Part shown: positions 15,656-64,000 of the stretch, one piece after another
How the letters are laid out: each line of letters opens with the position of its first letter
Position numbering within the stretch: the stretch's first letter is position 1
Assembly (NCBI GenBank): GCA_963753865.1
Contig: CAVWDW010000003.1
Coordinates: 53,619 to 117,618 of the forward strand
DNA length: 64,000 nucleotides
Reading direction: 5' to 3'
Source: an uncultured Chloroflexia bacterium
GTDB taxonomy: Bacteria > Chloroflexota > Anaerolineae > Promineifilales > Promineifilaceae
Position numbers and translations under genes: made by a program
Notes under the pieces: generated by a model
What the model was told of the DNA's origin: nothing
Database searches by the model: none
The model's input: the letters and a program-made list of their open reading frames with translations, nothing else

Positions 15656-18600
15656 GTGATACCAACGATCCAGAGTCAAAATGCCGTCCACGCAGCAGCC
15701 AACGTGCCACAATTGAACATAGGTCTGATCACAGGCTCTCTCTACGAGGACAGCATTGCCATCCTGTCAGGTGCAATCTCTGCGGCGCGGCAGCACAATG
15801 TCAACCTGGTTTGCTTTCAAGGGGGGCAAATCGGACTGGGACTTAATGAAGAGTCCGTCTATCGACTCATTACCCCGGACTACATCGACGGGCTGATTCT
15901 ATGGGCGGGTTGGCTGGGGCAAAACGCCAGCTCTGAGGACATGGCCCACTTCAGCCAACTGTTTTCAAGCATCAAGACAGTCAGCATCTCGCAGCAGTTC
16001 AACGACTCGCCCAGTGTGATGATTGATAACCGGCACGGCATAAGGGAGGTTCTGACGCATCTCATTCGTGACCATAATCGGCAGCGTGTGGCCATTGTCC
16101 AGGGGCCAGGGGGGCATTTCGAGTCGGAAGAGAGGTATCAATCTTATCTGGAAACGCTGACCGCCCAAGGCATTCCTGTTGATCCGGCGCTGGTGGCCCC
16201 GGGCGTTTTCGCCAAAGAGTCAGGCGTGGCGGCCGTCAACCTGTTACTGGATGAGCGGCAGGTCATGCCCGATGCCATTGTGACGCTCGATGATTACGTA
16301 GCCATTGGCGTCATAGGCGAGCTTCAGCGGCGCGGCCTGCGCGTGCCGGACGATATAGCGGTCACCGGCTTCGACAACGTACCTGAAGCAGAGGTGTTCA
16401 GCCCACCTTTGACCACTGTCTTTCAATCCGGTTTCGACCAGGGACGGCAGGCGATGAATTTGTTGGTTGGCTGGCTTGCGGGCGATGACATTCCCAAACA
16501 GACAAACCTGCTGACCCCGCTGATTATCCGGCGGTCCTGTGGATGTCCGGACCCCATTCTGGCCACCTCGCCGCTTGGCGCGCCCGAACGGCAGAACGGG
16601 CAAGCAGTGGCAGAGAACGACAACGACCTTTCCGCCACACTCGCCACGCTGCTTGCCGAGCAATTTCCTGGCGTCGGTTCAGGCTGGCTGCCGACATTCG
16701 TACAGAGCTTGCTAGCTGCACTGGAAACCGGAGAGAGGCAGGCGTTCCAATCTACATTGGAGATGATCCTGACCAGCGAGATCCGTCAGGATGCCACCCT
16801 CGCCAATTGGCAGCAGATTTTGTCAGCCATCACGCCGGACATTCTAACGAGCTTGCCCCAACCGATCGCCCAGAAGGCTGTTGGTTTGCTCGAACAGGCC
16901 CGCTTGATGGTCAGCGAAAGGCAGCGCCGGCAGGAAGGGATCAAGCGGCTCCAGGCCGAGCGGCAAGCCTTTGCGCTGCATCATATCGGCCAGGAGCTGA
17001 TTACTACATTCGACCTGGACACATTGGCGGAGTTGGTCAAGACTCGCTTTCCCGAACTGGGTATTCCCGGCTGCTCAGTGGTGCTGTTTGACAATCCGGC
17101 GGATAGTATCTCAGTCTCTTCCAGACCGGTCGCGGAGAAGCGTCTGCATGTCCTGACGGGCTATGGGGCCGGTTTCCCGACTGGCAAACCGGCCATCACG
17201 CCCTGTCAACCTGTCGATGAGCATCTGACCAATTTGAAAGCCGCCGGCACCCTCATTGTTGAGCCGCTGGATTTCCAGGATCAGCACCTGGGCTACATCG
17301 TGTTTGAGATTGGCCCGTTGGACGGCATGCTATATGAAAAGCTGCGCAGTTACCTCAGTTCGGCTATCAAAGGGGCTTTGTTGTTCCAGCGCAGTGAATC
17401 GCTTTTTCGCCAGGAGATGGCGGCACGACAGAAAGCGGAGGAAGCCGACCGGCTCAAGACGACCCTTCTGGCGAACGTCAGCCATGACTTGCGCACGCCA
17501 TTGAACGTTATTCTCGGCTACACTCAATCGGCGCTCAACGATCCCAATCCCTACGGGCGGGAACTGCCGGGTGATCTGATTGAGGATTTGCGCTACGTGG
17601 TAACCAATGCGGAACATCTGACCCGGCTGATCAACGACCTGCTGGACCTGTCGCGCGCGGAGATCAATGAACTCAATCTCCACCCCGAACCGATCGACAT
17701 ACGAACGTTCTTGCTTGACCTATTCGAGGCCATGTCGGGCACCGACCCACAAGATGACGTCAAGTGGCTGCTCGACCTGCCCGCACGGATGCCCATTATC
17801 ATGGCGGATCCCGTGCGGCTGCGCCAGATCGTGCTCAATATTCTTAGCAATGCTGAAGAGTTCACCGATCGTGGGACTATCACTCTGGGGGCAACCATAG
17901 AACCGCCTTTCCTCCACATTTGGATTCGCGACACAGGCGCCGGTATCCCCGTCAAGATGCAGGAAAAGATATTCGAGCCGTTTGTGGCAGCCAACTCCCC
18001 GTCTGGTCGCCGTGGAGGCATTGGCCTGGGCCTGTCCATTACACGTCGCCTGGTTGCCTTGCATAAGGGCATAATCTCCCTCGAAAGCAAACCGGGCGAG
18101 GGCAGCACCTTCCACATCTTCCTACCGCTGCCCAGCCTGGAGGGAGAGGCAATCTCGCAGAAACCGGCCGGGAACCCGGTCTTGCTCTACGTCTCAGGGA
18201 TCAAGACCCCGGAGACAATCCGGGAGCTGTGCCACCGCGCGGGATGGGGATTGGTGCGGCTGCAAAACTATGATGACTTGGCCGGCCTGCTGGCAGACTG
18301 TTCGCCAGTGGCTGTCAGTTGGGATGTAACCGACGTTCGACCCAGCGATTGGGTAGTCATCCAGAAACTGCGTTCGAATCCCTACCTGTCGATGCTGCCC
18401 TTGCTCATCTTTGATATGCCTGCCAACCGAGCCGCTAACGGTGATTTGACATCTGTGTTTATGAAGCCGCTGCACAGCGAGAGCCTGATCAACTTTATTG
18501 AGGCGCTGGGTATCGCCGGACCCGACAGCACAATCCTGGTGGTCGACGATGATCCGCAGGCCAGGGAGTTGTACGGGAGCTTGATCGAGGATATCTTGCC

Positions 18601-19231
18601 CGATTGTCAGCTGCGGTCTGCTGCCGACGGTGTCGAAGCGCTGCACGCGATCAAGCAAGAACGCCCTTCGTTGATTATTCTGGACCTGATGATGCCACGA
18701 CTTGATGGCTTCGGTGTTATTCGTCAACTACGAGCGGACCCAAAGACAGAGTCTATTCCGATCATTGTCCTGTCCGGCAAAGTCCTCACCCCCGGCGATA
18801 TCCAACAACTGAAGGGCGAGCGGGTGTTTCTACAATCCAAAGGCATCCTGTCGGAAGAAGAGTTGAGCGCGATCATCGCCAGGGTCATAGGGGAGGGCGA
18901 CAGTCTGAAGCCGGCCAACGACATCGTCAAGATAGCGCTCGGTTTCATCCACCAACATTATTCGGAACCGATCACGCGGACGGAGATCAGTCTGGCCATT
19001 GGCGTGGACAAAGATTACCTGGGACGCCTGTTTCGCGAGGAGTTGGGTATGACCGTAGGACAGTATATAGGGCGCTTCCGCATCTATCTTGCCAGGCAAG
19101 CCCTCCGCCAGACCGATCTTGACATTGCCCATATCGCCTATCAGTGCGGATTTCAGGATGCAGCCTACTTCAGCAGGCTGTTTCGTAAACTGACCGGCAC
19201 GTCCCCACGGAAGTACCGTGCCCAGAAGTAA
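15656..19231 (+). CDS. Soluble hybrid two-component regulator: LacI-type sugar-binding (PBP type I) domain, GAF-like region, HisKA/HATPase_c kinase, degenerate receiver, canonical receiver, AraC-type HTH
   Basis: 1191 aa. PBP region LNIGLITGSLYED...DDIAVTGFDN. H-box NVSHDLRTPLN (His codon at 17483). G-boxes GGIGLGLSITRRL and GEGSTF. Receiver TILVVDDDP...LIILDLMMP (Asp codon at 18683). AraC HTH AYQCGFQDAAYFSRLFRK. No clear transmembrane segment seen. Confidence 0.8.
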   Translation: MIPTIQSQNAVHAAANVPQLNIGLITGSLYEDSIAILSGAISAARQHNVNLVCFQGGQIGLGLNEESVYRLITPDYIDGLILWAGWLGQNASSEDMAHFSQLFSSIKTVSISQQFNDSPSVMIDNRHGIREVLTHLIRDHNRQRVAIVQGPGGHFESEERYQSYLETLTAQGIPVDPALVAPGVFAKESGVAAVNLLLDERQVMPDAIVTLDDYVAIGVIGELQRRGLRVPDDIAVTGFDNVPEAEVFSPPLTTVFQSGFDQGRQAMNLLVGWLAGDDIPKQTNLLTPLIIRRSCGCPDPILATSPLGAPERQNGQAVAENDNDLSATLATLLAEQFPGVGSGWLPTFVQSLLAALETGERQAFQSTLEMILTSEIRQDATLANWQQILSAITPDILTSLPQPIAQKAVGLLEQARLMVSERQRRQEGIKRLQAERQAFALHHIGQELITTFDLDTLAELVKTRFPELGIPGCSVVLFDNPADSISVSSRPVAEKRLHVLTGYGAGFPTGKPAITPCQPVDEHLTNLKAAGTLIVEPLDFQDQHLGYIVFEIGPLDGMLYEKLRSYLSSAIKGALLFQRSESLFRQEMAARQKAEEADRLKTTLLANVSHDLRTPLNVILGYTQSALNDPNPYGRELPGDLIEDLRYVVTNAEHLTRLINDLLDLSRAEINELNLHPEPIDIRTFLLDLFEAMSGTDPQDDVKWLLDLPARMPIIMADPVRLRQIVLNILSNAEEFTDRGTITLGATIEPPFLHIWIRDTGAGIPVKMQEKIFEPFVAANSPSGRRGGIGLGLSITRRLVALHKGIISLESKPGEGSTFHIFLPLPSLEGEAISQKPAGNPVLLYVSGIKTPETIRELCHRAGWGLVRLQNYDDLAGLLADCSPVAVSWDVTDVRPSDWVVIQKLRSNPYLSMLPLLIFDMPANRAANGDLTSVFMKPLHSESLINFIEALGIAGPDSTILVVDDDPQARELYGSLIEDILPDCQLRSAADGVEALHAIKQERPSLIILDLMMPRLDGFGVIRQLRADPKTESIPIIVLSGKVLTPGDIQQLKGERVFLQSKGILSEEELSAIIARVIGEGDSLKPANDIVKIALGFIHQHYSEPITRTEISLAIGVDKDYLGRLFREELGMTVGQYIGRFRIYLARQALRQTDLDIAHIAYQCGFQDAAYFSRLFRKLTGTSPRKYRAQK

Positions 19232-33738: not shown

Positions 33739-35374
33739 ATGGTTAAGAAGGACATTGTAGAGGAAATTGACTGGGGCCAAACCGCCCTCGGTATCGAGTT
33801 CGGCTCGACCCGCATCAAGGTGGCTCTCATCGGGACCAACCATGTTCCCATCGCCTCGGGCAGCCACAGCTGGGAAAACCGGTACGACGATGGTGTCTGG
33901 ACCTACAGCCTCGACGATGTTTGGACCGGTCTGCAGGCTGCCTATCAGTCGCTCAGCGACGAGCTGTTCGAGACCTGCGGCGTGCCGCTGCAAACCGTAG
34001 GGGCCATTGGCTTCAGCGGTATGATGCATGGCTACATGGCCTTCGATGCGGACGGCAATCTGCTCGTCCCGTTTCGCACCTGGCGCAACACGACAACTGG
34101 CCAGGCCGCCGAGTCCCTGACCGAGCGCTTCCAATTCAACATCCCACAGCGCTGGAGCATTGCCCACCTGTATCAGGCCATCCTGAATGGCGAACCCCAG
34201 GTCAAGGACATCAGCTATCTCACTACGTTGGCTGGCTATGTCCATTGGCAGCTGACGGGGCGGAGGGTGGTGGGCATCGGCGAAGCATCGGGTATGTTCC
34301 CTATCGACGCCACGACCGGCAACTACGATACGCAGATGCTCGCGCAGTTTAACCACATACTTGAAGCGGAAGGCACGGCGTGGAAACTGCAGGAAGTCCT
34401 GCCGGAGGTACTCTACGCTGGAGATGCTGCCGGCGTCCTGACATCCGAAGGCGCCAGGCTGCTAGATCCGACCGGCCAATTCCAGGCCGGGATCCCGCTC
34501 TGCCCGCCGGAGGGCGACGCCGGGACGGGCATGGTGGCTACCAACAGTGTGGCCGAGCGAACGGGCAATGTGTCGGCCGGAACCTCCGTCTTTGCCATGA
34601 TCGTCCTGGAGCAGGCACTGTCGAAACGATATCCGGAGATAGATATGGTGACGACGCCCACCGGCAAACCGGTGGCCATGGTCCACAGCAACAACTGCAC
34701 CTCCGACCTCAACGCCTGGGTCGGTCTGTTTCAGGAATTCACCACGGCCCTGGGTGTGGACATCGACCAGTCCGCGTTGTTTGAGATGCTCTATCAGAGC
34801 GCACTCGGCGGTGAGGCCGATGGTGGCGGGATGCTGGCTTACAATTACCTCTCCGGTGAGCACTTAACCGGCTTTGAGGCGGGTCGACCGTTGTTCGTGC
34901 GCACGTCCTGGCAGCCGGTTCACATTAGCTAACTTCATGCGTACTCATCTCTTCGCGGCGCTTGGGGCCTTGAAGATTGGCCTGGATATCCTGTTTGAGG
35001 AGGAGCAGGTCACCATTGACCAGGTCCTGGGCCATGGTGGATTCTTCAAGACACCGGAAGTGGGCCAGAAGATGATGGTGGCGGCGATAAATGTCCCTGT
35101 GACGGTTATGGAGACAGCAGGGGAGGGCGGTGCCTGGGGGATGGCTCTATTGGCTGCGTACATGCTCCACGGGGAAGAGAATGAACCGTTGGAAGGGTAT
35201 TTGGGGAACAAGGTCTTCGCCGGGGAGCAGGGCACAACGGTCGCCCCAGACCCGGTCGATGTGGCCGGCTTTGCGGCTTTCATGGCACGCTACAAGGATG
35301 GGTTAGTTATTGAACGAGCTGCTGTAGATTCACTCTTGCTGCCACCATATGCGTCAGGGGAACAACATGCTTGA
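33739..35374 (+). pseudogene. FGGY-family carbohydrate kinase (ribulokinase-like), split by one frameshift near 34905
   Basis: ORF 33739-34932 ([12 protein letters not shown]...) continues in the +1 frame as ORF 34874-35374 ([13 protein letters not shown]...GHGGFFKT). The two join at ...RPLFVRT/PGSRFTL. Confidence 0.75.
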
Positions 35375-48572: not shown

Positions 48573-49883
48573 ATGGACGATCTTCTCCAACAAGCGGAAA
48601 ACCTTCTCAACGAATTCCTCCAACCGCAGGGTGATTTGCTGGGCCTGGCGATCCAGGCGCTGCTGTTCGCGCTGGCGCTGCTCATCACCCCGCTCATCTA
48701 CCGCTTCACTGCCCGTTACTTCGACAAGTTGACGGCGCGGCTGGGGCAGTATGACCGGGTGCAGTCGATGCCCGCCTATGCCGAAGGGTTCGCCACCTGG
48801 CGCGGCGTGCTGCGGCCGTTGGTGGCCTGGCTGCTCATGCGGATCGGCGTGGTGGTGCTCGACCAGATCGGCCGCCCCAGTTCCCTGCTGCTCTGGCTGA
48901 GCGGCTTTTTCCTTATCTGGCTGCTCTACCGGCTGGCCCACGCCATCATGACGCTGTGGATGCCGCTGGAACAGGCCGAACGCATCACCAACCGCATCAT
49001 CCGGCCCATCGCCATCATCATCGCCCTGGTCCACACAAGCGGCCTGCTGGATGAGTTCCTCGACCTCGGTTTCACCATTCAGACGGCCCGCATTACGCTG
49101 GGCGCGGTTATTGCCGGGCTGGCAGTCTTCGTGCTGGGCATCGTTGCCTCGCGGACGTCGCGCAGCTGGCTGCAGAACAGCTTCCTGCCCAACGCGGGGA
49201 TGGACGCTTCGCTGTCGGCCGTCCTGGCAACGCTGGCCAGCTACCTTGTGCTGGTGGCCGGGCTGTTCGCGGCCCTTATCGTAGCCGGCTTCGACCTGAC
49301 CGGGCTGACCGTCATCCTCGGTGGTCTGTCCGTCGGTCTGGCGTTCGGTCTGCAAGACGTCATCGCCAACTTCGTCAGCGGCTTCATCCTGCTGTTCGAG
49401 CGCTCTGTCGCCCACGGCGACGTAATCGGCATCGAGGAAGAGTTCGGTGTGGTGCAGGACGTGGGCATTCGGGCCACCGTCGTGCGCACGGTTAAAGACG
49501 TAGAACTGATCGTCCCCAACTCGTCGCTGCTGACCAACGTCGTCACCAACTATTCGCGCGGTGAGAACCGGTCCATCCGCCTGGAGATCGCCGTCTTCAC
49601 CTACTACGACAAGAACCCGAAGCTGGTGCGCGAAGCCATGATGACGGCCGCCGGGCGCGTGGACGGGCTGGCCGAAAAGCCCGCCCCCTATGTCGAGTTC
49701 CAGGCGTTCGGCGCCGACCGGACCAACGAGTTCACCCTCGAAGTGTGGATCGAAGACATCGGCGAGTTCGACGAGATCAGCAGCGACCTGCGCTTCTACA
49801 TCTGGGAAGAGATGGAGCAGCGCGGCCTCCACTTCCCGCCGATGCAGCATGAGGTGGCGATACGGGAGGGGCGGGCGCCGTAA
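48573..49883 (+). CDS. Mechanosensitive ion channel, MscS family
   Basis: Multiple transmembrane helices followed by the pore/beta-domain signature GLQDVIANFVSGFILLFERSVAHGDVI. AAAGGAG Shine-Dalgarno. Confidence 0.85.
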   Translation: MDDLLQQAENLLNEFLQPQGDLLGLAIQALLFALALLITPLIYRFTARYFDKLTARLGQYDRVQSMPAYAEGFATWRGVLRPLVAWLLMRIGVVVLDQIGRPSSLLLWLSGFFLIWLLYRLAHAIMTLWMPLEQAERITNRIIRPIAIIIALVHTSGLLDEFLDLGFTIQTARITLGAVIAGLAVFVLGIVASRTSRSWLQNSFLPNAGMDASLSAVLATLASYLVLVAGLFAALIVAGFDLTGLTVILGGLSVGLAFGLQDVIANFVSGFILLFERSVAHGDVIGIEEEFGVVQDVGIRATVVRTVKDVELIVPNSSLLTNVVTNYSRGENRSIRLEIAVFTYYDKNPKLVREAMMTAAGRVDGLAEKPAPYVEFQAFGADRTNEFTLEVWIEDIGEFDEISSDLRFYIWEEMEQRGLHFPPMQHEVAIREGRAP

Positions 49884-50077
49884 TCGCAGACCTCAGAGGT
49901 CTTGAAGTAGATGGCGACGTGACAACTTCTGTCCTGTCGCACAGGCGGTTGTTGGCAGTGGCAAGCAGTGACCTCTCCGTGGCGACCGGAGAGTCACCAT
50001 ATTTACCAACTTCACAAACAGGTTGCCTGCGATTGCGTTATATTGCTGTCTTGCCAGCCTGCTTCGCAGCACTGTAC

Positions 50078-50273
50078 CAGGGTTTTTCAGTTGTCTGTTT
50101 CGGCCGGAACACAGGCCGTTTCAACGGCCTGCTACCGGAGGAAACCCACCGAAGGTGGGTTGCAGAAGGGGTGGCCGGCGCGCTGTCCTTTCCGGGTCAA
50201 GTGGGTTTTGACCCACTTGCCCGGTAGCTGCCGGGTTGTCAACCCGCAGCGGCTTGACAACTGAAAAGCCCTG
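50078..50273. mobile_element. 196-bp MITE-like non-coding element, copy A: 18-bp terminal inverted repeats and 10-bp target-site duplication
   Basis: 5' CAGGGTTTTTCAGTTGTC and 3' GACAACTGAAAAGCCCTG are reverse complements apart from one T/C. Flanked by AGCACTGTAC at 50068-50077 and 50274-50283. About 80% identical to 63366-63559. Confidence 0.75.
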
Positions 50274-50448
50274 AGCACTGTACCGCAGCAGTAGTGACTA
50301 TCAGCTGTTTGCTATACAATAGCAGAACATATCTCGCCCCACTTTCTTTGCTTCCAGATGAATAGGTTCGTATCAGGGCAGGATACCCGTTTTCCCGTGG
50401 TGTCGGCGTTCTTGCCGCGCACCTGTTATGATCGCATGGAGGTTTCTA

Positions 50449-50931
50449 ATGAGTGAACGTGCAGATGCTTTAGCCAATCGGATTATGGAGGGAGCTGAGG
50501 CGTTGGCCTCTTTCACCGAACACCTTTCTCCGGCAGGATGGGCGACGATCGTTCCCGGTGACCAGCGCCCGGTGGGCGTATTAGTTCACCACGTAGCCAG
50601 CATGTATCCACTCGAAGTGGATCTGGCGCGGTTGTTGGCTGAGGGCAAGCCAATTGCGGGTGTGACCTGGGACGATGTTGACCAGGGCAATGCCGATCAC
50701 GCCCATACCAACGCTGAGGTGGCCCAGGGGGAAGCCATCGCCTTGTTACGGCGTAATAGTAAGGCAGCTGCCGATCGCGTCCGAGAGTTCACTGATGAAG
50801 AATTGGACAATGCGGCAATCGTCTCTCTCAATACCGACGCGCCTCTGACCGCACAGTACTTTATCGAGGATCATGCCTTGCAGCATAGTTTCCATCATCT
50901 GTCCAGTATCCGTATGGCCCTCGACGCCTAG
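50449..50931 (+). CDS. DinB family protein
   Basis: About 160 aa with His-containing helices (VLVHHVASMYP, ADHAHTN, HSFHHL). GGAGG Shine-Dalgarno before the ATG at 50449. Confidence 0.6.
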   Translation: MSERADALANRIMEGAEALASFTEHLSPAGWATIVPGDQRPVGVLVHHVASMYPLEVDLARLLAEGKPIAGVTWDDVDQGNADHAHTNAEVAQGEAIALLRRNSKAAADRVREFTDEELDNAAIVSLNTDAPLTAQYFIEDHALQHSFHHLSSIRMALDA

Positions 50932-50991
50932 AGGACTGGAGGGGAGCACGTTCGTCAGGTACGCGCCAAGGACGTGCTCCCATATGGGTTG

Positions 50992-51450
50992 CTAGTCGCC
51001 ATTCTCCTCCCTCTCGGCGCCGCCGACCACCCTGACCGTTTGCGCCAGGATGCGCTTTTCGGCGTCGCTCAGGCGGGCTTCCGGGTGGGTGATCAGAAAG
51101 ACAGCCGGGGGCATCTCACCTTCCAGAATGACTTCGGCCATCTCGTCTCCTTCTTCACCTTCGCGGTCTCCCTTGCCCCACTCAGAGAAGTTGAGGTATT
51201 GCCGCCCCTCAACTACGTCACGCTGCACCAGCCAGGAAACAGGGGCCACATTGCTATACCAGGGCCATTCTGTCTCGTTGCTGTGGCAATCGTAGCACGC
51301 TCGCTCCGCCAGCTCCCTGGCCTCGGTGTCGGTCCAAACCAGGTCGTTGGTAATGGGTGGGTTCGTATGGTTCCGTCCATAGGGAACCAGCTGAATGAGA
51401 AGAAACCCGCCAGCGACAACGACCACCAGAACAAGAAATAACCTGCGCAT
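50992..51450 (-). CDS. Heme-binding domain (Haem_bd) protein with an N-terminal membrane anchor
   Basis: CYDCHSNETEWPWYSNVAPVSWLV matches the cytochrome-c-type heme-binding domain family. ATG at 51450 behind a G-rich Shine-Dalgarno. Confidence 0.75.
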   Translation of the reverse strand: MRRLFLVLVVVVAGGFLLIQLVPYGRNHTNPPITNDLVWTDTEARELAERACYDCHSNETEWPWYSNVAPVSWLVQRDVVEGRQYLNFSEWGKGDREGEEGDEMAEVILEGEMPPAVFLITHPEARLSDAEKRILAQTVRVVGGAEREENGD

Positions 51451-63227: not shown

Positions 63228-63365
63228 AGCGTGTATTCCTTGCAAGACGGCCGCCCCGCCGCTCGGGGCTGGACCGCAGTATACGTTTGTTGAGTGCTTG
63301 GGTACCATGATAGTAGCAGATTTTGGCCAACTTGCCTCATTTGTTGGCGCCAATCAGTTTCGCGC

Positions 63366-63559
63366 CAGGGTTATGTAGTTGTCTGTTTCAGGTGGCATAC
63401 AAGCCGTTGGAATAACCTGCTGCTGGTGGCAACCCGCTGGAGATGGGTTGCAGAAGGGGTGGCCGGTGCGCTTTCCTTCTCGTCTTTAGTGGGTTTTGAC
63501 CCACTTCCCCGGTAGCGGTCGGGTTGTCAAGCCGCTGCGGCTTAACAACTGAGCCCCTG
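63366..63559. mobile_element. 194-bp MITE-like element, copy B, with a 9/10 target-site duplication
   Basis: Same ends (CAGGG...CCCTG) and the same conserved core as copy A. Flanked by AGTTTCGCGC (63356-63365) and AGTCTCGCGC (63560-63569). Confidence 0.7.
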
Positions 63560-63673
63560 AGTCTCGCGCACCGAACCTACCGCGACGCAACCGCCTGCGG
63601 TATACTGGCGTCGGGTTTCCCACCCTGAACCGAATATTGCCGCTCAACATCCCCCTATAAGAAGGAAGCGCCC

Positions 63674-64000
63674 ATGCAGCCCAGCCTATTTGACACGGAA
63701 GTCAAACTCGCCGTCTACCGTCATCTTGCAGAGAGTGGCCGGCGGCCGCCGGTGGAGCAGATCGCCGAGCGACTCGAGGTCAGCGTCGGCCGTATTCTGG
63801 CCGCCTATGAACGTTTGCAAGACCAGCGGCTGCTGGTGCTGGAGCCGGACCGGGCCACCATCCGTATGGCCCCACCCTTCTCCGGCGTGCCTACGCAGCA
63901 CGTGGTCGAGTCCGGCGGCGTGCGCTACTTTGCCAACTGCGCCTGGGATGCGCTGGCAGTGCTGGCGGCGCTGCGTCGACCGGGGGTGGTCCGCTCAGCC
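63674..64000 (+). CDS. Alkylmercury lyase (MerB)-like family protein, N-terminal part; runs off the window
   Basis: My own translation from the ATG at 63674: MQPSLFDTEVKLAVYRHLAESGRRPP...MAPPFSGVPTQHVVE...YFANCAWDAL. This shows an N-terminal wHTH-like region plus a Cys-containing MerB-type motif. It is not in the ORF track because no stop falls in the window. Confidence 0.55.
   Translation, partial: MQPSLFDTEVKLAVYRHLAESGRRPPVEQIAERLEVSVGRILAAYERLQDQRLLVLEPDRATIRMAPPFSGVPTQHVVESGGVRYFANCAWDALAVLAALRRPGVVRSA

Follow-up and report, generated by a model that had tools for sequence, protein, structure and literature searches.

What is the 196-bp palindromic sequence that lies, with an MscS-type channel gene on one side and a DinB_2 gene on the other, in this uncultured Chloroflexia bacterium, and is it, or was it, able to move? 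We addressed this question in the whole stretch of DNA presented here (64 kb, hereafter the window) and in related DNA. A first-pass annotation, made from the letters alone, had described at this place a 196-bp element with 18-bp terminal inverted repeats differing by one T/C, set within a perfect 10-bp duplication, and both features could be located exactly. The element, referred to here as copy A, occupies positions 50078-50273 of the plus strand (covariance-model score 224.6 bits), where a terminal-repeat stem closes five internal hairpins. By direct reading of the sequence, and in the terminal-repeat search, its left end CAGGGTTTTTCAGTTGTC falls at 50078-50095 (plus strand). The right end, GACAACTGAAAAGCCCTG, falls at 50256-50273, where the minus strand reads CAGGGCTTTTCAGTTGTC; apart from a single T/C difference it is the left end reverse-complemented, and the two 18-bp repeats thus match at 17 of 18 positions. 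The general form of the terminal repeats of the element is CAGGG[T/C]TTTTCAGTTGTC.

Directly outside both ends stands the 10-mer AGCACTGTAC, at 50068-50077 on the left and at 50274-50283 on the right (both plus strand). The two copies are exact and are the only ones in the 64 kb, in which 0.09 occurrences are expected. A search for the terminal-repeat pattern with up to 3 mismatches gave three matches in the window against 0.02 expected from shuffles, namely both ends of copy A and the left end of a second copy, copy B, and no other terminal-repeat-like site was found elsewhere in the window at that threshold. With its perfect duplication and 17/18 repeats, copy A is a recent insertion, the youngest and best preserved of the copies that we know.

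The claim of a second copy 13 kb away also held. A direct-repeat search placed copy B at 63366-63559 (plus strand, 194 bp, 196.5 bits with the covariance model), 13,288 bp downstream of copy A and 81% identical to it, inserted into the promoter region that separates two divergent genes, one for a deazaflavin-dependent reductase and the other MerB-like. Comparison of its flanks, and alignment with a relative, revealed a flanking repeat of its own, AGTTTCGCGC at 63356-63365 and AGTCTCGCGC at 63560-63569 (both plus strand), matching at 9 of 10 positions; we calculate that agreement at 9/10 or better would arise by chance with a probability of about 3e-5. This repeat has the same length as that of copy A and a different sequence (AGTYTCGCGC vs AGCACTGTAC). 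Since the flanking 10-mers differ between the two sites, they are target duplications and not the core of a recombination site. The terminal repeats of copy B are degraded, with 3 mismatches in the left one and a 2-nt deletion in the right one.

The relative is an uncultured Chloroflexia bacterium represented by the MAG CAVQSM01, whose contig CAVQSM010000006.1 shows synteny with the window, at a nucleotide identity of about 90%. A search for empty sites in related genomes had been proposed in the first-pass annotation, and for site B it had a clean outcome in this MAG. We retrieved the orthologue of the deazaflavin-dependent reductase gene from the relative and aligned the intergenic regions. 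The spacer between the MerB and reductase genes measures 240 bp in CAVQSM010000006.1 vs 444 bp in the window, which is the sum of 240, the 194 bp of the element and the 10 bp of the duplication. The flanks of the site are 88% identical between the two genomes, and where the window carries copy B between its two repeats the relative has a single AGTCCGCGC, the element and one copy of the repeat being precisely missing. No other observation argues as strongly as this filled and empty pair that the element is mobile or once was. Copy B is thus read as an older, decaying insertion which arrived after the lineage of the window split from its nearest sequenced relative; formally, the absence from the relative could also reflect a precise excision and not a later insertion.

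Site A offers no orthologous empty site, because in the relative the 1.2-kb segment corresponding to window 49877-51043, which includes copy A and DinB_2, is replaced by about 4 kb (L123 11110-15176) with a gene for a multicopper oxidase and two others that lack Pfam matches. An exact look-up of the DinB_2 protein found no record of it. Synteny with CAVQSM010000006.1 is regained at window position 51044. A more distant relative is also non-syntenic at site A, downstream of the MscS gene. Since the breakpoint coincides with the stop codon of the MscS gene and is 195 nt away from the element, the ends of the element do not mark the indel.

Two further observations concern the surroundings of copy B. 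The gene downstream of it (window 63675-64000) corresponds to the MerB (organomercurial lyase, PF03243) genes of the relative, in which two overlapping ORFs are called for MerB (L129 8941-9760); the MerB-like fragment in the window, 108 aa long and cut by the window end, had no Pfam match at E<=1e-5. Moreover, a short-read Logan contig from the source organism, ERR11523668_408647 (L128 1-115), breaks inside copy B just past the conserved core described below. Such a break fits a branch of the assembly graph at a repeat and is a weak hint of further copies.

Counting the copies, as had also been proposed, brought to light a third one, and at the same time showed the family to be small as far as it is sampled. 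A 20-mer from the core of the element, searched among 185,579 species-representative genomes, matched one MAG only, through CAVQSM010000006.1. There, copy C occupies a locus unrelated to A or B (L001 379-563), and it appears again at the other end of the contig (L002); we counted these two occurrences as one insertion site. Copy C is 83-84% identical to A and B, with an 11-nt deletion in its first hairpin, eroded tips, terminal repeats that are degraded and still recognisable, and a flanking duplication matching only at about 6 of 10 positions. Both arms of its terminal repeats carry the same change of GTTGTC to GTTTTC, as is expected if the two ends co-evolve with one transposase.

The contig itself has a peculiarity. 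Both ends of the 188.7-kb CAVQSM010000006.1 (L001 2-2027 and L002 2063-4063) bear the same sequence of about 2 kb, including copy C, with 86% identity between the two and many indels, and a gene full of internal repeats lies downstream. These repeated ends could be the overlap of a circular contig with noisy ends or a real segmental duplication.

Altogether there are three known insertion sites in two related MAGs, two in the 64-kb window and one in the relative, and the element measures 184-196 bp across the three copies. A covariance model built from the three copies, run over the window and some 90 kb of related DNA, found no others. Plasmid and phage blastn searches with the element gave no matches, nor did scans of viral contigs with the terminal repeat and with the core. 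A metagenome scan with a 17-mer of the core was too permissive, such that the matches listed were all random, and the BLAST matches extended over 20-33 nt only. All three left flanks start with AG, which is not significant at n=3. The copies differ from each other by 16-19% vs 12% for orthologous intergenic DNA between the two genomes. Because the copies diverge more than the orthologous intergenic DNA, they must derive from master copies between which divergence had already taken place, which implies a family larger or older than the three sites seen.

We then asked whether the element encodes anything. A six-frame chimeric peptide query, designed to pick up any spurious ORFs annotated in other copies, was searched against 5.8 billion protein clusters, and no homologue was found for any frame, in agreement with the earlier statement that the element contains no credible gene. 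Its non-membership of Rfam families was likewise borne out, there being no match at the gathering score and the best sub-threshold match reaching 19 bits vs a cut-off of 95 bits. Scans of the element for promoter and terminator consensus sequences found nothing. At the inner edge of the right repeat of copy A, and overlapping it, there is nevertheless a perfect sigma-70 -35 hexamer, TTGACA (50252-50257), which faces outward and resembles the arrangement by which insertion sequences give rise to hybrid promoters. In the flank of copy A it is not followed by a -10, and the hexamer is unconserved, reading TTAACA in copy B and being absent from copy C.

The claim that the element is packed with hairpins stood, with one refinement. 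All the hairpins listed are present in copy A, where folding gives a five-hairpin block at 50112-50254 (plus strand; hairpins at 50112-50131, 50143-50161, 50165-50192, 50193-50223 and 50226-50254) that has no support from covariation; they are, however, confined to this young copy and have decayed in B and C. Folded as RNA, copy A reaches -115.8 kcal/mol, with z=-8.3 relative to shuffles; the minus strand gives z=-9.1, and folding as single-stranded DNA gives z=-8.2. The folds of copies B and C are only modestly better than those of shuffles (z about -3). Covariation and pair conservation in the three-copy alignment were equal to those of shuffled controls, and the only pair with changes on both sides lies in the terminal repeat. 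As the folds are weaker in the older copies, the hairpins belong to the element at the time of its insertion and are not kept up later, and their decay together with the lack of covariation means that they are not evidence for a selected RNA. A structured RNA was accordingly rejected on the Rfam, covariation and two-strand folding tests.

The interior of the element behaves otherwise. In the three copies, which are otherwise 81-84% identical, 23 consecutive columns of the alignment (TGGGTTGCAGAAGGGGTGGCCGG) are invariant in 3/3 (column-shuffle P=0.0017); this core lies at 50156-50178 in copy A and at 63444-63466 in copy B, both on the plus strand. The three copies likewise agree throughout a 15-nt hairpin, GTGGGTTTTGACCCA. 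By comparison, the invariant columns of the terminal repeats number only 12 of 18 and 8 of 19. Conservation is thus higher in the interior than at the ends, a pattern that one would not expect of a simple decaying MITE. The core could be a cis-element for transposition in the master lineage, a site for a host factor or an exapted function. All three copies have the same orientation and lie about 105-160 nt upstream of the start of a gene on the same strand, an arrangement with a chance probability of 0.25.

A short reading frame also passes through this region. An 18-codon frame is kept in the three copies, at 50155-50211, 63443-63499 and L001 446-502, starting with GTG, ATG and GTG, respectively, traversing the invariant core and ending at a common TGA stop. 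Its C-terminal half varies freely between copies, so that the conservation looks to be one of nucleotides and not of a peptide.

Several readings other than a simple mobile element were weighed against these data. A structured non-coding RNA or 5' leader, inherited vertically, immobile and flanked by repeats that agree by coincidence, would suit the very stable multi-hairpin fold of copy A (z=-8.3) and the intergenic position upstream of genes; yet the relative lacks the element precisely at site B and keeps one of the flanking 10-mers, two different flanking 10-mers occur at two sites, neither Rfam nor covariation lends support, and both strands fold equally well, as is typical of DNA palindromes. 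We thus consider this reading very improbable. Even less credit, next to none, goes to a site-specific recombination system of the integrase, Xer or integron type, of which the sequence would be the footprint or the attachment site. A palindromic structure between direct repeats is what such a site could look like, but the flanks differ between the sites (AGCACTGTAC vs AGTYTCGCGC), as in a duplicated target and not in a constant core, and a Pfam search of the window ORFs showed no recombinase gene nearby.

More room must be left for a mobile element that also bears a functional module, its core and hairpins acting as a protein-binding site, a small RNA or a regulatory cassette upstream of genes, although this too we hold to be improbable. 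The invariance of the 23-nt core (P=0.0017) while the terminal repeats vary, the common orientation of 3/3 copies, each about 105-160 nt ahead of the start of a gene on its own strand, and the perfect outward TTGACA at the right end of copy A all speak in its favour. Against it, the conservation of the core may equally be due to a cis-requirement for transposition in the master copies, three co-oriented insertions are expected by chance with a probability of 0.25, and TTGACA is unconserved in copies B and C. Furthermore, there is no covariation, the hairpins have decayed in B and C, and the consensus scans found neither promoter nor terminator. In its most specific form, this proposal would have the core TGGGTTGCAGAAGGGGTGGCCGG and the hairpins as a functional cassette, a protein-binding site or small RNA, spread upstream of stress and detoxification genes (DinB_2, MerB-like) or, alternatively, the core as a new internal cis-element for transposition of the ISAs1 type; we mention it as a long shot.

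The reading that we prefer is that the element is a 196-bp non-coding DNA transposon (MITE), non-autonomous and moved by a DDE transposase that acts in trans and has its gene elsewhere, and we consider it very probably correct. The element has terminal repeats, is flanked by duplications at two sites and is polymorphic in presence and absence, with a single copy of the target in the empty site; it holds no gene and no known RNA. The MITE interpretation of the first-pass annotation thereby gained the support of different 10-bp duplications, an empty site at B, a third, unrelated locus and a lack of coding capacity. As for the mechanism, the transposase would bind both 18-bp terminal inverted repeats, which start with 5'-CAGGG, and cut at the tips of the element, excising or copying it. 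It would then join the ends of the element to a target cut with a 10-bp stagger, the repair of which would yield the 10-bp direct duplication. We infer a DDE chemistry, of either the cut-and-paste or the copy kind. In this scheme the element is probably selfish DNA without a host function.

If the element is moved in trans, which transposase moves it? The window was said to lack one, and both tests agree with this: a Pfam search of its approximately 54 ORFs found no transposase and only metabolic, transport and regulatory families, and tblastn with the ISAs1 transposase YhhI was negative on the window and on related loci. Neither the window nor the roughly 90 kb of related DNA yielded an autonomous partner.

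Two other genes of the window deserve mention. An FGGY-family carbohydrate kinase is split over overlapping ORFs, 33739-34932, with the N-terminal and part of the C-terminal domain, and 34874-35374, with the remaining C-terminal domain; it is a frameshift pseudogene or an assembly error. In a 1,191-aa ORF at 15656-19231, a periplasmic sugar-binding domain is joined to HisKA, HATPase, a receiver domain and a helix-turn-helix of the AraC type. This hybrid two-component layout is known best from polysaccharide loci of Bacteroides, and the ORF adjoins ABC sugar-transport and glycoside-hydrolase genes.

The ends of the element are more informative about a helper. To our knowledge, ISfinder lists "CAGGG, direct repeat 8-10" for ISAs1 alone. 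We surveyed 11 ISAs1 elements, consisting of ten diverse transposase loci from plasmids and the E. coli H-repeat, and located their ends. CAGGG...CCCTG tips were found in 7 of the 11, with 14-20/22 identity between repeats, and perfect 10-bp duplications in six: those of Methylocystis, Azospirillum (ISAzs5), a Shigella plasmid (ISAeme2), Martelella, Streptomyces and Alteromonas, the last with CACGG tips. The H-repeat around yhhI in E. coli K-12 (PF13808 and PF01609, 1,291 bp) ends in CAGGGAAAGATC.../CAGGGCAAGATT..., or, given at greater length, CAGGGAAAGATCATCAAA / CAGGGCAAGATTACGAAA. The published ISAs1-family element ISArsp11, of 1,306 bp, has the left repeat CAGGGCTGATGCAAAGTCG and a 10-bp direct repeat (PMC6305408, Table 3). 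In its CAGGG tips, 18-bp repeats and 10-bp duplication, our element matches ISAs1; beyond CAGGG, its similarity to the repeats of ISArsp11 and of the Streptomyces ISAs1 element is weak, about 10-11/19 by eye.

These results changed two statements of the first-pass annotation. A 10-bp duplication had been thought uncommon for an element of this kind, whereas 10 bp together with CAGGG tips is the ISAs1 signature (PMC6305408, Table 3; our 11-element survey). Likewise, the element had not been recognised as a known IS end or Rfam family; the Rfam half of this stands, while the ends point to a particular family as candidate partner. Because CAGGG tips, repeat length and 10-bp duplication are common to both, ISAs1 is the likeliest source of the partner, and judging from the ends we regard an ISAs1-family insertion sequence as the probable helper, though with clearly less assurance than we attach to the MITE itself. 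With no autonomous partner found, the family of the helper is read only from the signature of ends and duplication. Having no transposase, the element is not an ISAs1 insertion sequence itself and would be at most a derivative or passenger of one.

The main competitor on this point is a MITE mobilised by a transposase outside ISAs1, either from the groups of the IS4 family with 10-12-bp duplications (IS231, ISH8, IS4Sa) or from an undescribed family. No partner was found in the window or related DNA, and past the CAGGG tip the likeness to the ISAs1 terminal repeats is weak, both of which leave space for another helper. Tips in CA are widespread among DDE transposons in general, and duplications of about 10 bp are made by subgroups of the IS4 family as well. 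These same IS4-family groups, however, end in CAT or CA and not in CAGGG, and the full 5-nt CAGGG with exactly 10 bp is the pattern of most of the ISAs1 elements sampled. A helper from outside ISAs1 is therefore an unlikely choice, if one to be taken seriously, and an ISAs1-type helper is the one that we carry forward.

Here a transposition event can be read from sequence alone, through a filled site, an empty site and a duplication, in an uncultured Chloroflexia lineage whose mobile elements are barely catalogued; our literature search found no paper on MITEs in Chloroflexi. The ends of the element direct the search for its helper to ISAs1-type transposases. The element can also serve as a marker of insertion polymorphism at the strain or species level, and it is a likely cause of assembly breaks in these MAGs. 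The contrast between the conserved core and the varying ends could bring to light either a sequence that transposition requires in cis or an exapted function. What goes beyond a routine MITE is only the tidy pair of filled and empty sites and this conserved core.

Set beside known systems, the element shares with ISAs1 elements (ISArsp11, ISAeme2, ISAzs5 and the E. coli H-repeat/ISEc1) the CAGGG...CCCTG tips, repeats of about 18-22 bp and the 10-bp duplication. The ISAs1 elements measure 1.2-1.4 kb and encode a transposase with DDE_Tnp_1_assoc and DDE_Tnp_1, whereas ours has 196 bp and no ORF; sequence similarity past CAGGG is weak, and there is no ISAs1 element in the Chloroflexia DNA examined. 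REP/BIME palindromes resemble it in being intergenic and palindromic. REPs are mobilised by RAYT (REP-associated transposase) and have 20-40 bp and no target duplication, unlike the 196 bp, terminal repeats and 10-bp duplication found here. Closer parallels are the bacterial MITEs, such as Correia/NEMIS of Neisseria, RUP of Streptococcus pneumoniae, ERIC/IRU of enterobacteria and Nezha of cyanobacteria, although the element has no sequence similarity to the repeat RNAs curated in Rfam. Families of the Correia, RUP, ERIC and Nezha type usually count tens to hundreds of copies and make duplications of 2-9 bp (TA for Correia and RUP), compared with the three known insertion sites and 10-bp duplication of the element. 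Like it, they are short, non-coding and intergenic, have terminal inverted repeats and a target duplication, fold into a long hairpin or several hairpins, and are present or absent between related genomes. The view supported by this analysis is that of a new, low-copy and clade-restricted MITE with ISAs1-type ends, belonging to a kind of element that is already known.
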